DNA of 39,475 bases, from positions 1 through 39,475 of the forward strand of contig RFXU01000001.1 in assembly GCA_009921505.1 (NCBI GenBank), written 5' to 3'. The DNA comes from Flavobacteriaceae bacterium (GTDB lineage Bacteria; Bacteroidota; Bacteroidia; Flavobacteriales; Flavobacteriaceae). Positions 2,682 through 38,273 of the stretch are shown here, piece by piece. How positions within the stretch are numbered: position 1 is the stretch's first letter; each line of letters begins with the position of its first letter. The translations under genes and the position numbers were made by a program. Below the pieces are notes generated by a model. That model saw only the letters and a list, made by a program, of their open reading frames with translations. It had not been told where the DNA came from and did no database searches.

Positions 2682-3617
2682 ATGAAATCACATGTATTGA
2701 GCGGGCTTTGTCTTATTTTGACTCAAGCAGGACAGGCCCAAGAATTATTCATTGCAAACTTCGAACAACCATCTGTGCATAACAGTCTTTATTACGATTT
2801 GGAGGACCCAAGCACCTCACATCCTTTGGTGAATAACCCCGATGAGCCCATACTGAACTTTACAGGACAAGGCAATAATCTCGGTTATAGCGCTTTTTAC
2901 ATTCCCTATGACGATCCAAGCACAGGACTCAGTGATGGCGATCATGCGGGAATTACAGATGATACGGGAATCACTGGAGCCTGGAGTGAAGGTAATCAAG
3001 GCTACGTCCTAAGTGATATCGATGGCAATTTTATTCTGAACTTTTCTGAAATTCAGTTACAGCCATCGACAGAAACTACGGTTTCTTGCAGTCTCTTTAT
3101 AAGGGAATCGACCTATGAAGGTGATGGAACACAAAATGCCTCCAATTCTGATCGCATCGCTATATATGTGGTCGACCCATCAAGTGGATTAAAAATTGAT
3201 TTAATAAACACTGAAGGCCACGATATTGACGACTTGGATATTGAAGGACGTTGGCTGAGGCTCACGGCGCAAATCTCCGGGTTTGATCGCGCAAAACTCG
3301 TGGTTGAAGCCCGAAATAACGCAAGTAATGAAGCCTTTTATATCGATGACATCCGCTTTGAAAGACAGCTCAACATCACTGATATAAAAACCAAAGAATC
3401 ACTGGTAGTTCCCAATCCAATTGATCAAAATTTTTCATTAATTCGTCGCCCTTCAGACTTAAAAGAAATTTACATTCAAAATATTTTCGGACGCATTATT
3501 TGGCGCGGAGATATTCACCAAAATTCATGGTCGGTCCCCCATTTGAATAGCGGCTTGTATTTCCTAAATATCGCCGATCGTGACCTTACTTGGACCCAAA
3601 AAATAATTAAAAAATAA
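2682..3617 (+). CDS. secreted protein of unknown function with T9SS C-terminal sorting domain
   Basis: It has a signal peptide (MKSHVLSGLCLILTQAGQAQ) and an acidic beta-rich domain of about 235 aa ending in FYIDDIRF. The last ~75 aa (LVVPNPIDQNFSL...GLYFLNI...KIIKK) look like a type-A Por/T9SS CTD. Confidence 0.75.
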   Translation: MKSHVLSGLCLILTQAGQAQELFIANFEQPSVHNSLYYDLEDPSTSHPLVNNPDEPILNFTGQGNNLGYSAFYIPYDDPSTGLSDGDHAGITDDTGITGAWSEGNQGYVLSDIDGNFILNFSEIQLQPSTETTVSCSLFIRESTYEGDGTQNASNSDRIAIYVVDPSSGLKIDLINTEGHDIDDLDIEGRWLRLTAQISGFDRAKLVVEARNNASNEAFYIDDIRFERQLNITDIKTKESLVVPNPIDQNFSLIRRPSDLKEIYIQNIFGRIIWRGDIHQNSWSVPHLNSGLYFLNIADRDLTWTQKIIKK

Positions 3618-32496: not shown

Positions 32497-32574
32497 AAAA
32501 GGGGCCATTATTCCGTGGTTATCAATTGATTTTGTCGATTTAACGACGCTGCGTTCAGAAATTGATTCTGGACA

Positions 32575-32665
32575 TGTTCCTAAACAGCATTACCTGTTCA
32601 AGGTTCTATGGGTATAATCTCAGCCGAACTTATTTAAAACAAAATGATCAGCACCCCTTTGAGAT
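32575..32665 (-). promoter_or_regulatory. TPP (thiamine pyrophosphate) riboswitch aptamer (THI-box)
   Basis: The minus strand reads GGGGTGC-[P3 hairpin GCTGATC..GTTCGGC]-CTGAGA-ttat-ACCC-atag-AACCTTGAACAGGTAATGCTGTTTAGGAA. This matches the conserved GGGGUGC / CUGAGA / ACCC / AACCUGAUCUGGAUAAUGCCAGCGUAGGGAA blocks in order and spacing. Confidence 0.85.
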
Positions 32666-32672
32666 GATGGTG

Positions 32673-32785: not shown

Positions 32786-34312
32786 CTAAATTAATGGCCT
32801 GTGTGCCTTGGCAAGCAAATCGTTTACAGTTTTTACCGGGTTAAAGGTTTCAAGGGGCACGGCTACAAAAACCGTGTGCCATTTTGCCATCGCCCCATTC
32901 CACAATCCAGGCAGCTCAAGGGCTTTGAGGGGCTTCCCTTGATGGGTTTTGTGGGCGATAAAACTCATGTGCTGATCACGATAATTCATCAAGTCGTACG
33001 GTTTGCCTTCATGATCCCGCAATCCACAAACTAAATCCACAGGATTAAAATGAGTGGCCTGAGAAAATACATCCATATGTCTTGAGTTGCCCTTATCAAA
33101 TTGGGCGCCTTCTAAAATCTGCAGATTCGGTATTTGATCCTCGTCCTGTATCCAAAACGGACCTCCTCCTGGGGCGCCGGTGTTGGCTACTACACCACAC
33201 ACTCGGAGCGGGCGATAGAGCAATTCATAAGCCTCCTCAGCTGTTTTAGGTAGCGTTCGTAGGCCAAAACTCTTCCAAAGAAAGGCATTTAAGGCTTCCA
33301 TAGAAACAGCTTCAGGTTTGGAGGACAAGGCCTTTAGATACTCGTGAATCTTGGACTGATAGTCCAGTAAAATTCCTGCAAGGCCTTTTTTGTAAAGCGC
33401 CATTTCCGGCACCTCCTCTTGGATAATTACATTGTCAATATTCTTAATAAACACGACATCAGCGTTGACCTCATTTAAATTTTCAAGCAGAGCGCCGTGT
33501 CCTGAGGGTCTGAATACAAGCCGCCCTTGATCATCACGAAAAGGGTTGTTCTCCAGATCCACCGCGATCGTTTTGGTCCGATCTTTTTGAAAGGAGTACG
33601 AAATATGATAATTCTTTTTGGTGTGTCGTTCTAACCGCGACTGTATCTGGGAAAATTCATTTTTAAATCCCTCTAAATGCTCGGGCGAAAACGTAAAATG
33701 GTTATAGACTTCATTCTTTGTTGCCGCGTAAAAAGCGCCCTCATAGAGTTGTTCTTCAAAAGCAGTGCGTATATTTTTTTTGTACCGGTGAAAGGGGATC
33801 AGTCCCTTGGGCAAACCCCCAAAATTCAATCCATGTTCTTGAACTAAAACAGAAACCATGGTATAGAAGCGTTTTTCTTTGGTCCAAGTTTTAAATTCAG
33901 GGTATAACTCACGAATCCGCTGACGAATAAGATCTATAAAAGGGAACTCTTTAAGATTGTTATAAAACTTAGCAATGGCTTGATTCTCGGGTAGAGTCAG
34001 ATAAGTATTTAGCCGATGTTTGTTTGGATCAAATGAATTTAAAAAATCAAAAAGAAAACCAAACATACGTGTTGCCGCCCCAGAGGCAGGAACAAATTTG
34101 ACCACCTCTAAGGCGTTTGATTGTTGTTCGAATTTACGCGCCCAATGACGCCACTGATCCATAGAACAATCAATAATTCCATCCCCAATAGTGGCCGGAC
34201 GCAAAATATCGAGTACAGGCACTCCTTGTTTAAATACCTGGATTTGGGCCATAACTTGGGCCTGGTCGATGCCTAACTCTTGAATATCCTCTATGTCACG
34301 ATGGTCAAACAT
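32786..34312 (-). CDS. DUF4301-like protein; putative nucleotidyltransferase (UDPGP-like motifs)
   Basis: It is 508 aa and carries the motifs VKFVPASGAATRMF, FRPSGHGALL and VFIKNIDNV. Its start overlaps the upstream kinase gene by 8 nt. Confidence 0.8.
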   Translation of the reverse strand: MFDHRDIEDIQELGIDQAQVMAQIQVFKQGVPVLDILRPATIGDGIIDCSMDQWRHWARKFEQQSNALEVVKFVPASGAATRMFGFLFDFLNSFDPNKHRLNTYLTLPENQAIAKFYNNLKEFPFIDLIRQRIRELYPEFKTWTKEKRFYTMVSVLVQEHGLNFGGLPKGLIPFHRYKKNIRTAFEEQLYEGAFYAATKNEVYNHFTFSPEHLEGFKNEFSQIQSRLERHTKKNYHISYSFQKDRTKTIAVDLENNPFRDDQGRLVFRPSGHGALLENLNEVNADVVFIKNIDNVIIQEEVPEMALYKKGLAGILLDYQSKIHEYLKALSSKPEAVSMEALNAFLWKSFGLRTLPKTAEEAYELLYRPLRVCGVVANTGAPGGGPFWIQDEDQIPNLQILEGAQFDKGNSRHMDVFSQATHFNPVDLVCGLRDHEGKPYDLMNYRDQHMSFIAHKTHQGKPLKALELPGLWNGAMAKWHTVFVAVPLETFNPVKTVNDLLAKAHRPLI

Positions 34313-34841
34313 GCAAATTGGGCCAGGTTTTATTAATGAATTGACAAGCCTGAATCACACGGTCTTGATGGGATCCTTCGATCACTTCATAACACGCCTT
34401 CTTTTGATCTAAATAGGTTTTAAAGATACTGAATAAGGTTTCGCGGGCCAAAGGTTGATCACGCAAGTCATCGGCCTCCCATGGGATGTCTGGCTTGGTC
34501 AATAAATAGATGACTTGGTTTTTTGACGGGCGCATAAATTGAGGGATTTGGCCCCAATTGGCGCCAAAATAATACTGAAAATACACCTCAAGTTGTTCTA
34601 TGTTGGTGTCCATAAATATGGGGTAATGTCCGGATGACGCCTGCTTTAATGCCCGCTGCTGTGCTTTAAATTGCCCGTCCAATAAGTGGGGGATGTCTTG
34701 GCGAGCAACCGTGCGCTTTTGCGTATCCCAAATGTCTTGGGCGTAGGTCCTTAAATACTCTGTCGCCAAAACCCCGTCATAACGCGTCACTAGAGCTGCT
34801 GCGAGGGTTGATTTACCACTACACTCAGGGCCAAAGAGCAC
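34305..34841 (-). CDS. P-loop kinase resembling the ribosylnicotinamide-kinase (RNK) domain of NadR, stand-alone
   Basis: It has a GTG start and a Walker A motif (GPECSGKST). The segments EYLRTY, IFMDTN and LLTKPDIPWEADDLR parallel the NadR C-terminal domain. No NMNAT domain is present. Confidence 0.8.
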   Translation of the reverse strand: MLFGPECSGKSTLAAALVTRYDGVLATEYLRTYAQDIWDTQKRTVARQDIPHLLDGQFKAQQRALKQASSGHYPIFMDTNIEQLEVYFQYYFGANWGQIPQFMRPSKNQVIYLLTKPDIPWEADDLRDQPLARETLFSIFKTYLDQKKACYEVIEGSHQDRVIQACQFINKTWPNLHV

Positions 34842-34919
34842 AATTTGCGGAGCAATTATTTGATCAATTGAGGCGATAAAAAAGAGTTATATGGAAATAA
34901 AACTATGATTTTGAGGCAA

Positions 34920-35540
34920 TTACTGAACTTTTAAAGATCTGCGCCATGCGCGTAAACCTTGAACCGCCAGCACGGTAAAGATAAGGTATTGCAACGAAAG
35001 CATTCCCATACCGCGATAGGCATAAAGCGGCACAGTGATCACATCGCCGATGATCCATAAGGTCCAGTTTTCTATTTTTTTATTGGCCATATACCACATT
35101 GCCGTGAAAAATATCCCAGAGGTTACCATATCGACATAACTGAACCACTGCATATCGTAATCAAACCCTTGGTACACGGCATAAGTGACTCCAACAGTGA
35201 TTAAAAAAAAGATAAGGCCTACCCAGCGCTCTTTAAAGTTAGTAGCACTGATTTCGTATACGGGTTGTTCTCCATTAAAACGCGTCCATTGATACCATCC
35301 GTAAAGACTCATGAGGCTGTAGTAAACATTCATCATCATGTCCCCATAGTACTGCGCCTGATACAACAAATACACGGTCAAAGCCGTCCCAATGAGTCCC
35401 GTGGGATAGACTAAAATATGGGCTCTCTTGGCGTACCAAACACTGAGTATTCCGCAAATAAAAGCAATGGCCTCAATCACTATTTGGGTTGCTCCTGCGG
35501 ATCGATAAGGACCAATAACAAATTCTATTAGGGTCTCCAT
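34920..35540 (-). CDS. pnuC: PnuC-family nicotinamide riboside (or related riboside vitamin) transporter
   Basis: It is 206 aa with 7 TM helices and W/Y-rich PnuC signatures (SLYGWYQW, KKIENWTLWIIGD). Its start overlaps the upstream gene's stop (TAATG). Confidence 0.85.
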   Translation of the reverse strand: METLIEFVIGPYRSAGATQIVIEAIAFICGILSVWYAKRAHILVYPTGLIGTALTVYLLYQAQYYGDMMMNVYYSLMSLYGWYQWTRFNGEQPVYEISATNFKERWVGLIFFLITVGVTYAVYQGFDYDMQWFSYVDMVTSGIFFTAMWYMANKKIENWTLWIIGDVITVPLYAYRGMGMLSLQYLIFTVLAVQGLRAWRRSLKVQ

Positions 35541-36286
35541 TAATTCTGGATTTTATTATTGGTTATAATTTCTTCGATAGCTGTGCCGATTACAACCATA
35601 TCGGCCCCCGCAGCCCAAGCGGACTCAATCTGCTGTGTTTCTCGCAGACCACCCCCAACGATTAAGGGCAGTTCTGTTTGTTTTTTAATCCTTGTGATCA
35701 CGGTTGCAGGAATCGGATTTTTGGCCCCACTCCCCGCCTCCAGATAAATGGATTTGGCCCCCATATATAATGCGGCCATGGCGCGATTTGCAATCTTATC
35801 AGGATCATTTAAGGACAAGGGAAGGGTCTTGGTTACTTTGGCCACAGCACTGTCCCGCCCGCCATCGATGAGCAAATAACCCGTAGCAATCGTAAATAAA
35901 TCTATGGCTTGAAGCTGCGCCGCCGCGCGTTCCTGTTGACGAATCAGATATTCAGGATTGTCTCCAGAAACAAGAGACAAAAATAACAGAGCATCCGCTG
36001 CTGGACTTATTTGCTCGGCGTCTCCAGGAAAAATCCAAATAGGCAGATTCACTAACCTTTTGATGGCCACAATCAAGTCATGAGTCACTCCCGGGGCTAC
36101 ACTGCTGCCTCCTACAAAAATGTGTGTGGTTGCATCGGGTAAATGACTTAACAATTTAGGGAGGACATCTTCCCCGCATTTATCCGGATCAATGAGCACG
36201 GCAAGTTGCTTCTTTCCCTTTCGTATGTCTGTCTTCCATCGATCTAAGGGGCTCAGAGGATCGCTAGAATTGCTGAATTCAGTCAT
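35540..36286 (-). CDS. geranylgeranylglyceryl / heptaprenylglyceryl phosphate synthase (PcrB/GGGPS family)
   Basis: It is a TIM-barrel protein with AVLIDPDK, IFVGGS, IYLEAGSGA and PLIVGGGLR, which are typical of GGGPS/PcrB. Confidence 0.85.
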   Translation of the reverse strand: MTEFSNSSDPLSPLDRWKTDIRKGKKQLAVLIDPDKCGEDVLPKLLSHLPDATTHIFVGGSSVAPGVTHDLIVAIKRLVNLPIWIFPGDAEQISPAADALLFLSLVSGDNPEYLIRQQERAAAQLQAIDLFTIATGYLLIDGGRDSAVAKVTKTLPLSLNDPDKIANRAMAALYMGAKSIYLEAGSGAKNPIPATVITRIKKQTELPLIVGGGLRETQQIESAWAAGADMVVIGTAIEEIITNNKIQN

Positions 36287-36985: not shown

Positions 36986-37045
36986 TGAGTCTAAAAAATG
37001 TTCCGTACTTTTGTCGGCAAATTCGAATCCATCAAATATAACAAT

Positions 37046-38249
<1,204 letters not shown>

Positions 38250-38273
38250 ACTTAGATTGATGTTCAATCCAAC

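Follow-up and report, generated by a model that had tools for sequence, protein, structure and literature searches.

In a Flavobacteriaceae bacterium (assembly GCA_009921505.1, contig RFXU01000001.1) a protein of the family DUF4301 is encoded directly behind a NadR-type P-loop kinase and a vitamin channel of the Pnu family. The stretch analysed here, called the window throughout, comprises 39,475 nucleotides (positions 1-39,475 of the contig), and the three genes follow each other on its minus strand, head to tail (Table 1). The predicted structure of the DUF4301 protein has the fold of the UDP-sugar pyrophosphorylases together with their conserved catalytic motifs, and the protein is very probably an active nucleotidyltransferase that couples a nucleoside triphosphate (NTP) to a phosphate ester (NTP + X-phosphate -> NMP-phosphate-X + pyrophosphate). 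The account which in our opinion explains the observations best, and to which we would give somewhat less than even credence, is that the channel and the kinase constitute a thiamine uptake pair and that DUF4301 acts as a nucleotidyltransferase in the pathway of this kinase. The component parts are of known kinds, namely a Pnu channel paired with a kinase that traps its substrate, a TonB receptor gated by a riboswitch, and a transferase of the UDPGP fold; the finding itself is not described in the literature searched.

Predicted fold and conserved motifs of the DUF4301 protein

Nearly the whole protein (residues 5-505) is assigned by Pfam to PF14134, DUF4301, with an E-value of 1e-188 and 628.6 bits against a cutoff of 27. 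The family comprises more than 3,400 clusters at 50% identity, of which about 1,350 match strongly, and in the literature searched it receives one passing mention, in an unrelated rumen metaproteome study, and no assigned function. The UDPGP family (PF01704) matches residues 397-502 only, and weakly so (E 0.0086, 15.2 bits against a gathering cutoff of 22). A direct sequence search against the PDB gave no match and a profile search returned yeast Ugp1 as a marginal one (E 0.09). Since the matches at the level of sequence are absent or marginal, the fold assignment is taken from an AlphaFold model, built from a 64-sequence alignment (mean predicted local distance difference test score 91, predicted TM score 0.90), and from the comparison of this model with the PDB by Foldseek. 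The best 20 matches are all UGP or UAP/AGX enzymes (E 6e-11 to 8e-7, probability 1.0, TM 0.35-0.52), including the UGP of human, yeast, Arabidopsis and Aspergillus, the UAP of Candida and Aspergillus and human AGX2, followed by bacterial RmlA-type enzymes at about 1e-4 to 1e-2. No nicotinamide mononucleotide (NMN) adenylyltransferase (NMNAT) occurs among the Foldseek matches listed, and DUF4301 has no Pfam match to CTP_transf_like, the HxGH fold. The initial annotation of this DNA, made by reading the sequence, had proposed a UDPGP-like fold on the basis of short motifs, and on the predicted structure this proposal stands.

The motifs that it quoted are all present, the three listed in Table 1 being joined by ANTGAPGGGPFW at residues 376-387. 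Conservation was assessed across 117 DUF4301 members drawn from Flavobacteriaceae, other Bacteroidota and Chlorobi, in which 75 positions, all motifs included, are at least 97% conserved. In the VKFVPASGAATRMF motif, which we take to resemble the GGxGTR(L/M) loop of the sugar nucleotidyltransferases, P75, A76, S77, G78, A80, R82, M83 and F84 reach this level; likewise R268, P269, G271, H272, G273, A274 and L275 in FRPSGHGALL, where HMMER pairs RPSGHGALLENL with YPPGHGDLFESL of yeast Ugp1, and F288, K290, N291, I292, D293 and N294 in VFIKNIDNV, which is paired with LFVSNGDNL. A further motif lies inside the region of the weak Pfam UDPGP match, where FNPVKTVNDLL is paired with FLPVKTCSDLL of Ugp1; here P492, V493, the candidate catalytic lysine K494, D498 and L499 are conserved. 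The catalytic roles of GHG, NxDN and the PVK(T) lysine are presumably those assigned from the UGP and AGX structures. Taken together, the fold and the near-invariance of the motifs make it very probable that the enzyme is active.

What it would act on is less directly indicated. DUF4301 has in common with the UGP, UAP/AGX and USP enzymes of PF01704 the overall predicted fold, a length of about 500 residues and the order of the GHG, NxDN and PVK(T)xxDLL motifs, but differs from them in what would be its Gly-rich loop, which reads P-A-S-G-A-A-T-R-M-F (SGAATRM in place of GGLGTSMG or GGQGTRLG), and in a helical insertion of about 80 residues, seen in the model and the conservation pattern, only after which the conserved P168-K169 follows. 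It also forms a family of its own, of unknown function, restricted to the Bacteroidota/Chlorobi group. The altered loop, the insertion and an identity of only 10-19% speak against a plain UDP-glucose pyrophosphorylase and, with the sub-threshold Pfam UDPGP score, suggest a different substrate. These features count against an alternative in which DUF4301 would serve the Bacteroidota/Chlorobi group as a housekeeping enzyme, a nucleotidyltransferase for sugar 1-phosphates without any role in vitamin salvage, a candidate role being that of a divergent UDP-glucose/UDP-sugar pyrophosphorylase feeding envelope glycans or a eukaryote-like glycogen synthase of glycosyltransferase family 3 (GT3). On balance we regard this alternative as unlikely, while taking it seriously: the structures that match DUF4301 best are those of UGP and UAP enzymes, the positions E, N, GHG, NxDN and PVKT that it has in common with Ugp1 are invariant, and GT3 glycogen synthases do occur in Bacteroidetes (PMC11046441). 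It is again disfavoured in that none of the recurrent neighbours of DUF4301 is a sugar kinase, a mutase or a glycosyltransferase; the genomic evidence on both sides is considered below.

A probable thiamine context for the channel and the kinase

A feature absent from the initial annotation alters the reading of the whole module. Between the DUF4301 stop codon and the start of the TonB-receptor gene, the riboswitch model for thiamine pyrophosphate (TPP), RF00059, matches the coding strand at 32559-32668 over its full length (model positions 1-105), scoring 39 bits against a gathering score of 54.3 (E 3e-5); at the gathering threshold Rfam yields no match in the window. As the element is visible only at the E-value threshold, it was tested by positional conservation, by a purpose-built model and by counts of base pairs. 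With the Rfam model it was found at the same position and on the same strand in all five related loci tested. The purpose-built model, made from eleven copies, located it in 63 of the 80 genome loci to which the DUF4301 alignment had led, almost every one from Flavobacteriaceae, and always just upstream of the receptor, even where the latter lies 6-7 kb away. Counts over 68 copies of the element gave base pairing in 96% of cells, whereas the slid controls reached 34-60%; 11 of the 17 pairs carry changes at both positions. A conserved TPP-type aptamer thus precedes the downstream receptor, which begins about 80 nucleotides further on. Full-length homologues of this receptor, 27-48% identical, follow TPP elements in six loci (L095, L091, L099, L111, L104 and L102), and the protein is a candidate thiamine receptor.

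The connection with thiamine is not confined to loci that carry DUF4301. Among 41 metagenome loci centred on relatives of the kinase, eight have a TPP element, and six of these eight lack DUF4301. Three of the elements exceed the Rfam gathering score: in L102 (GC content 0.69) riboswitch, TonB receptor, Pnu transporter and AAA_28 kinase form one operon; in L107 the order is transporter, kinase, riboswitch; and in L110 (3968-6110 of a high-GC metagenome contig) a stand-alone AAA_28 kinase without a transporter is immediately followed by a TPP riboswitch (66.6 bits) and then by thiM and thiE, as identified by Pfam. In L097 a TMP-TENI (TenI/ThiE-like) gene lies immediately upstream of transporter and kinase, and L095 keeps the Flavobacteriaceae synteny with transporter, kinase, riboswitch and receptor, without DUF4301. 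Nothing related to NAD, be it a gene, a regulator site or a riboswitch, was detected in the window or the loci. The TPP-like elements, the TPP-led operon and the thiM-thiE and TenI-like neighbours together make thiamine uptake and trapping a likelier function of the transporter-kinase pair than nicotinamide riboside salvage, and the initial annotation's assignment of the pair to nicotinamide riboside is accordingly not supported.

The transporter belongs to PF04973, NMN_transporter (E 2e-49), passes the cutoff of the PnuC model TIGR01528 (93.9 bits against 42.45), and matches the Neisseria mucosa PnuC structure 4QTN (E 2e-7), with WTLWIIGD aligned to WALWIVVN. This stretch corresponds to the WxxW(x)3D/N motif of the sixth transmembrane helix, which is common to PnuC and to the thiamine transporter PnuT (PMC5749112), so that the motif cannot decide the substrate. 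In a rough tree the window transporter groups with transporters linked to stand-alone kinases. Channels of the Pnu type operate by facilitated diffusion, their substrate being trapped by a co-located kinase (PMC5749112).

The kinase is assigned to PF13521, AAA_28 (E 8e-22). NCBIfam aligns it solely with the C-terminal ribosylnicotinamide-kinase part of the NadR models (positions 168-324 of 325), and it therefore lacks an NMNAT domain, as the initial annotation had held. Its scores stay below the NadR equivalog cutoffs (TIGR01526, 58.9 bits against 341; NF005988, 30.5 against 201). Relatives retain the Walker A sequence GPECSGKS, a DT Walker B motif and the DIPWxxDxxR lid region. The GTG start leaves three residues, the first beta-strand, ahead of the Walker A loop; no ATG, GTG or TTG occurs in frame between it and the upstream stop at 34887-34889 (34841-34889 searched), and close homologues are called with the same short start or one about six residues longer, a non-canonical start (ATT or ATA) being possible.

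On this evidence we consider it somewhat probable that channel and kinase form the inner-membrane part of a system that takes up thiamine. Thiamine would be taken through the outer membrane by the riboswitch-gated TonB receptor, would diffuse through the inner membrane by way of the Pnu channel and would be trapped by the kinase as thiamine phosphate, the NadR-type P-loop kinase standing in for a thiamine pyrophosphokinase. Several observations weigh against such an assignment. The aptamer lies downstream of transporter, kinase and DUF4301 in the window and in all Flavobacteriaceae loci, and so cannot control them but only the receptor. The sole riboswitch-led operon is that of L102, the kinase of which is only 32% identical to that of the window. 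Among solved structures the kinase appears, from its sequence, most similar to the ribosylnicotinamide-kinase domain of NadR, four NadR entries (1LW7, 9X6F, 6GYE and 8X7F) being its only PDB sequence matches, over residues 2-171. In a rough neighbour-joining tree NMNAT-fused and stand-alone kinases are not cleanly separated, because only two sequences (L103 and L122) were verified by Pfam as NMNAT fusions, and in the Lactococcus lactis NadR structures the kinase site is empty, so that no specificity can be derived from them for the window kinase. In the literature searched, no thiamine kinase of the P-loop or NadR-like type is described. We have kept our estimate for thiamine only a little above even because the riboswitch lies downstream in the lineage of the window itself, because the operon that a riboswitch does lead is found in a distant relative, and because neither the family motif nor the rough tree separates the specificities.

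The same findings bear on a second alternative, in which the channel is a nicotinamide riboside PnuC, the kinase makes NMN and DUF4301 serves in trans as a non-homologous NMN adenylyltransferase, recycling NMN made in the cell in those other Bacteroidota that have DUF4301 without its partners. That the kinase aligns along its full length with NadR ribosylnicotinamide-kinase domains and that the transporter passes the PnuC cutoff would be natural consequences of such an arrangement; the fusions of kinase and DUF4301 described below would mirror the kinase-adenylyltransferase logic of NadR; and NMN, a universal metabolite, is compatible with the occurrence of DUF4301 on its own and, as a riboside phosphate, could in principle sit in a sugar-phosphate pocket. 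We nevertheless judge it improbable. The window and the loci showed no NAD-related signal, while the transporter-kinase pair is repeatedly tied to TPP riboswitches, to a TPP-regulated receptor, to thiM-thiE and to a TenI-like gene; the PnuC score loses force because PnuC and PnuT are inseparable by the family motif; DUF4301 has no similarity to any known NMNAT by Pfam, PDB search or Foldseek; and most relatives of the kinase do without DUF4301.

Coupling of kinase and DUF4301 across genomes

In the window the kinase and DUF4301 genes overlap by 8 nucleotides, ATGTTTGA, within which the former ends with TGA (34307-34305) and the latter begins with ATG (34312-34310); gene positions and overlap, both reported in the initial annotation, were reproduced from the open reading frame (ORF) list and the sequence. 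The gene order recurs among the 80 loci, with the kinase directly upstream of DUF4301 in 71 and the transporter upstream in 74. Overlapping stop and start codons are found in 42 of the 71 kinase-DUF4301 pairs (23 with ATGA), a gap of 0-12 nucleotides in 13, and in 14-15 the two are a single in-frame ORF. Several species of Flavobacterium have such fusions in their isolate genomes, and Croceivirga and Flagellimonas have acquired them independently; they were confirmed as single ORFs by the ORF lists of L047 and L063 (isolates of F. araucananum and Croceivirga radicis), and five protein clusters are AAA_28-DUF4301 fusions by Pfam. An overlap of stop and start codons, or a fusion, usually marks consecutive steps or a complex. 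There is accordingly good evidence for a functional connection between kinase and DUF4301 in the Flavobacteriaceae, where the two are coupled in translation or fused.

Adjacency by itself is weak evidence, since the genes belong to a longer block (AhcY, PPTase, PcrB, transporter, kinase, DUF4301, receptor, lipoprotein, GreA, HIT) that is syntenic as a whole in this family, and on the housekeeping alternative both the adjacency and the fusions would reflect co-transcription within the block. That alternative gains further from the loci in which DUF4301 is kept where the kinase has been lost (L011, L061 and L077) or where both kinase and transporter have been lost (L022 and L024), and from its standing alone, among varied neighbours that include a glycosidase-family candidate identified by eye, in all 13 contexts sampled outside the Flavobacteriaceae (Tenuifilaceae, Capnocytophaga, Saprospiraceae, Marinifilum, a Chlorobi bin and several other Bacteroidota). 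It accounts less readily for at least two independent in-frame fusions kept across species and for the frequency of overlapping codons in the pairs. The linkage is therefore tight yet restricted to a lineage: the association of DUF4301 with pnuC and kinase genes put forward in the initial annotation holds in the Flavobacteriaceae, with their overlaps and fusions, and is not borne out in the outside contexts sampled or in most of the kinase-centred loci.

Whether DUF4301 works in the pathway of the kinase is a matter on which we lean only tentatively, and with a shade less than even confidence, to the affirmative. Most simply it would act on the phosphorylated product of the kinase, or on the same metabolite made in the cell; the latter would explain why DUF4301, with its active site unchanged, occurs alone in other Bacteroidota. 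DUF4301 is widespread and mostly solitary; in the Flavobacteriaceae it has come to lie between kinase and riboswitch and has repeatedly been fused to the kinase. Against a role in the handling of the vitamin stand the lineage restriction itself, with neither transporter nor kinase near DUF4301 in any of the 13 outside contexts and DUF4301 downstream of only 5 of the 41 kinase-centred loci (the remaining 36 kinase relatives being without it), and the nature of the predicted pocket. The residues that DUF4301 has in common with the UDPGP enzymes include E401 and N423, which we take, from the UGP and AGX structures, to be sugar-contacting positions. As these are kept, a sugar phosphate or a riboside phosphate would fit better than thiamine phosphate, and both alternatives, housekeeping sugar activation and NMN adenylylation, stay alive. 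In addition, we know of no physiological need for a nucleotidylated thiamine phosphate.

The most specific version of the thiamine account, that DUF4301 adenylylates or otherwise nucleotidylates the thiamine phosphate produced by the kinase (thiamine mono- or diphosphate + ATP -> adenosine thiamine di- or triphosphate + pyrophosphate), is speculative, and we would rate it as very improbable. A review of 2021 (PMC8615392) states that purification of the enzyme synthesising adenylated thiamine derivatives was only ever partial and that the enzyme had not been identified. Replacement of ThiL by DUF4301 was also considered and rejected: a step catalysed by ThiL belongs to the thiamine pathway of gut Bacteroidetes (PMC5613172), and the fold does not suit a phosphotransferase.

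Neighbouring genes, related systems and implications

The module extends beyond the three genes (Table 1). The ATG of the transporter overlaps the stop codon of a PcrB/GGGP-synthase-family gene at 35540, so that the latter is probably on the same transcript and the unit probably begins further upstream. PcrB is found upstream in 43 of the 80 related loci, in Flavobacteriaceae, and L097 and L099 likewise have it close to transporter and kinase. The window thus contains a longer same-strand unit composed of PcrB, Pnu channel, kinase, DUF4301, TPP-like element and TonB receptor.

Table 1. Coordinates of the module, of the DUF4301 motifs and of a gene block recurring beside DUF4301 in other genomes
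Feature	Position	Strand	Basis
TonB-dependent outer-membrane receptor, 743 residues	30246-32477	minus	Plug domain (Pfam)
TPP-riboswitch-like aptamer	32555-32672	minus	Rfam RF00059, full length
DUF4301 protein, 508 residues	32786-34312	minus	Pfam PF14134
NadR-type P-loop kinase (AAA_28), 178 residues, GTG start	34305-34841	minus	Pfam PF13521
Pnu-family vitamin channel, 206 residues, called PnuC by models	34920-35540	minus	PF04973 and TIGR01528
PcrB/GGGP-synthase-family gene	35540-36286	minus	PF01884 (3e-33); NF003198 (240.5 bits)
Nucleotide-binding-loop-like motif VKFVPASGAATRMF, DUF4301 residues 71-84	34061-34102	minus	Conservation
FRPSGHGALL motif, DUF4301 residues 267-276	33485-33514	minus	HMMER pairing with yeast Ugp1
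VFIKNIDNV motif, DUF4301 residues 287-295	33428-33454	minus	HMMER pairing with yeast Ugp1
PVKTVNDLL motif, DUF4301 residues 492-500, candidate catalytic lysine K494	32813-32839	minus	HMMER pairing with yeast Ugp1
TPR/VCA0040-like/AroE block after DUF4301	L082 5001-9855; L084 3577-10012; L087 5001-8327; L136 4001-8037; L139 4001-9308		

Outside the Flavobacteriaceae, a tetratricopeptide repeat (TPR) protein of about 470 residues and/or a VCA0040-like (PF04018) membrane protein together with shikimate dehydrogenase (AroE) recur after DUF4301. The protein of about 470 residues, seen in Marinifilum and Chlorobi, was considered as a partner of DUF4301 and rejected, being a TPR protein that is absent from the Flavobacteriaceae loci. 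PBP1a with Nramp is another such neighbourhood. In Capnocytophaga (L054, 3690-7506) DUF4301 lies 119 nucleotides downstream of a same-strand ORF of 715 residues, judged by eye from its N-terminal sequence to be a probable disaccharide phosphorylase (maltose/trehalose type) of glycoside hydrolase family 65, which, if so, would make beta-glucose-1-phosphate. In the Flavobacterium locus L061, which lacks the kinase, a Flavo-1 RNA (Rfam RF01705, 68.7 bits, 2804-2879, minus strand) adjoins the PPTase gene; the window has no above-threshold counterpart. Elsewhere in the window, on the plus strand at 36998-38185, an ORF resembling S-adenosylhomocysteine hydrolase, identified by eye, stops early at 395 residues, and its expected C-terminus (...PEYYRY) resumes in a different frame (38150-38250), past what looks like an internal deletion near 38150; a frameshift, a pseudogene or an error of assembly could account for the early end.

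The closest known counterpart on the thiamine side is the Bacteroides operon OMthi-pnuT-tnr3, which consists of a TPP riboswitch, the TonB receptor BT2390, PnuT (BT2396) and the thiamine pyrophosphokinase BT2397 (PMC5613172). The window resembles it in that its TonB receptor is immediately preceded by a TPP-type aptamer and that the cluster also contains a Pnu channel with a candidate vitamin-phosphorylating enzyme, and in L102 the order of riboswitch, receptor, Pnu transporter and kinase is identical. It differs in that the enzyme is a NadR-type AAA_28 kinase and not a pyrophosphokinase, no thiamine pyrophosphokinase domain being found by Pfam in the six neighbouring window ORFs scanned, and in its gene order (Pnu, kinase, DUF4301, riboswitch, receptor), which leaves the transporter outside riboswitch control and adds a predicted UDPGP-fold enzyme.

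With the PnuC-NadR salvage of Haemophilus, Salmonella and Lactococcus the module has in common a Pnu channel, a kinase of the same fold and motifs, and the coupling or fusion of this kinase to a (here predicted) nucleotidyltransferase, and the logic would be alike, leading from the vitamin to a phosphate ester and thence to a dinucleotide. In contrast to PnuC-NadR, the module lacks an HxGH-type NMNAT, its partner enzyme has the predicted UDPGP fold and is fused at the C-terminus of the kinase rather than at the N-terminus, and its genomic context points to thiamine and not to NAD. Likewise, RibF, Fkp and HldE join a kinase and a nucleotidyltransferase by fusion or co-translation, which suggests two consecutive activation steps, but they are built from different domain families and none of them pairs a NadR-type kinase with a UDPGP-fold transferase.

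Whatever its substrate proves to be, DUF4301, conserved across the Bacteroidota without an assigned function, is now placed as an intact nucleotidyltransferase of the predicted UDPGP fold, and its repeated fusion to a vitamin-type kinase constitutes a concrete biochemical lead. Should the kinase be confirmed as a thiamine kinase, it would represent a non-orthologous replacement of thiamine pyrophosphokinase or ThiK and, as a NadR-type P-loop enzyme, a new class of thiamine kinase; and should the adenylylation of thiamine phosphate prove true, the synthesis of adenylated thiamine derivatives would for the first time have a gene, that of DUF4301, assigned to it. More generally, the link of stand-alone NadR-type kinases and their Pnu channels to TPP riboswitches in several lineages suggests that thiamine uptake may be the actual context of many genes which now bear the annotation 'PnuC / nicotinamide riboside kinase', a reannotation that bears on the prediction of vitamin B1 and B3 auxotrophy and of cross-feeding from marine and gut genomes.

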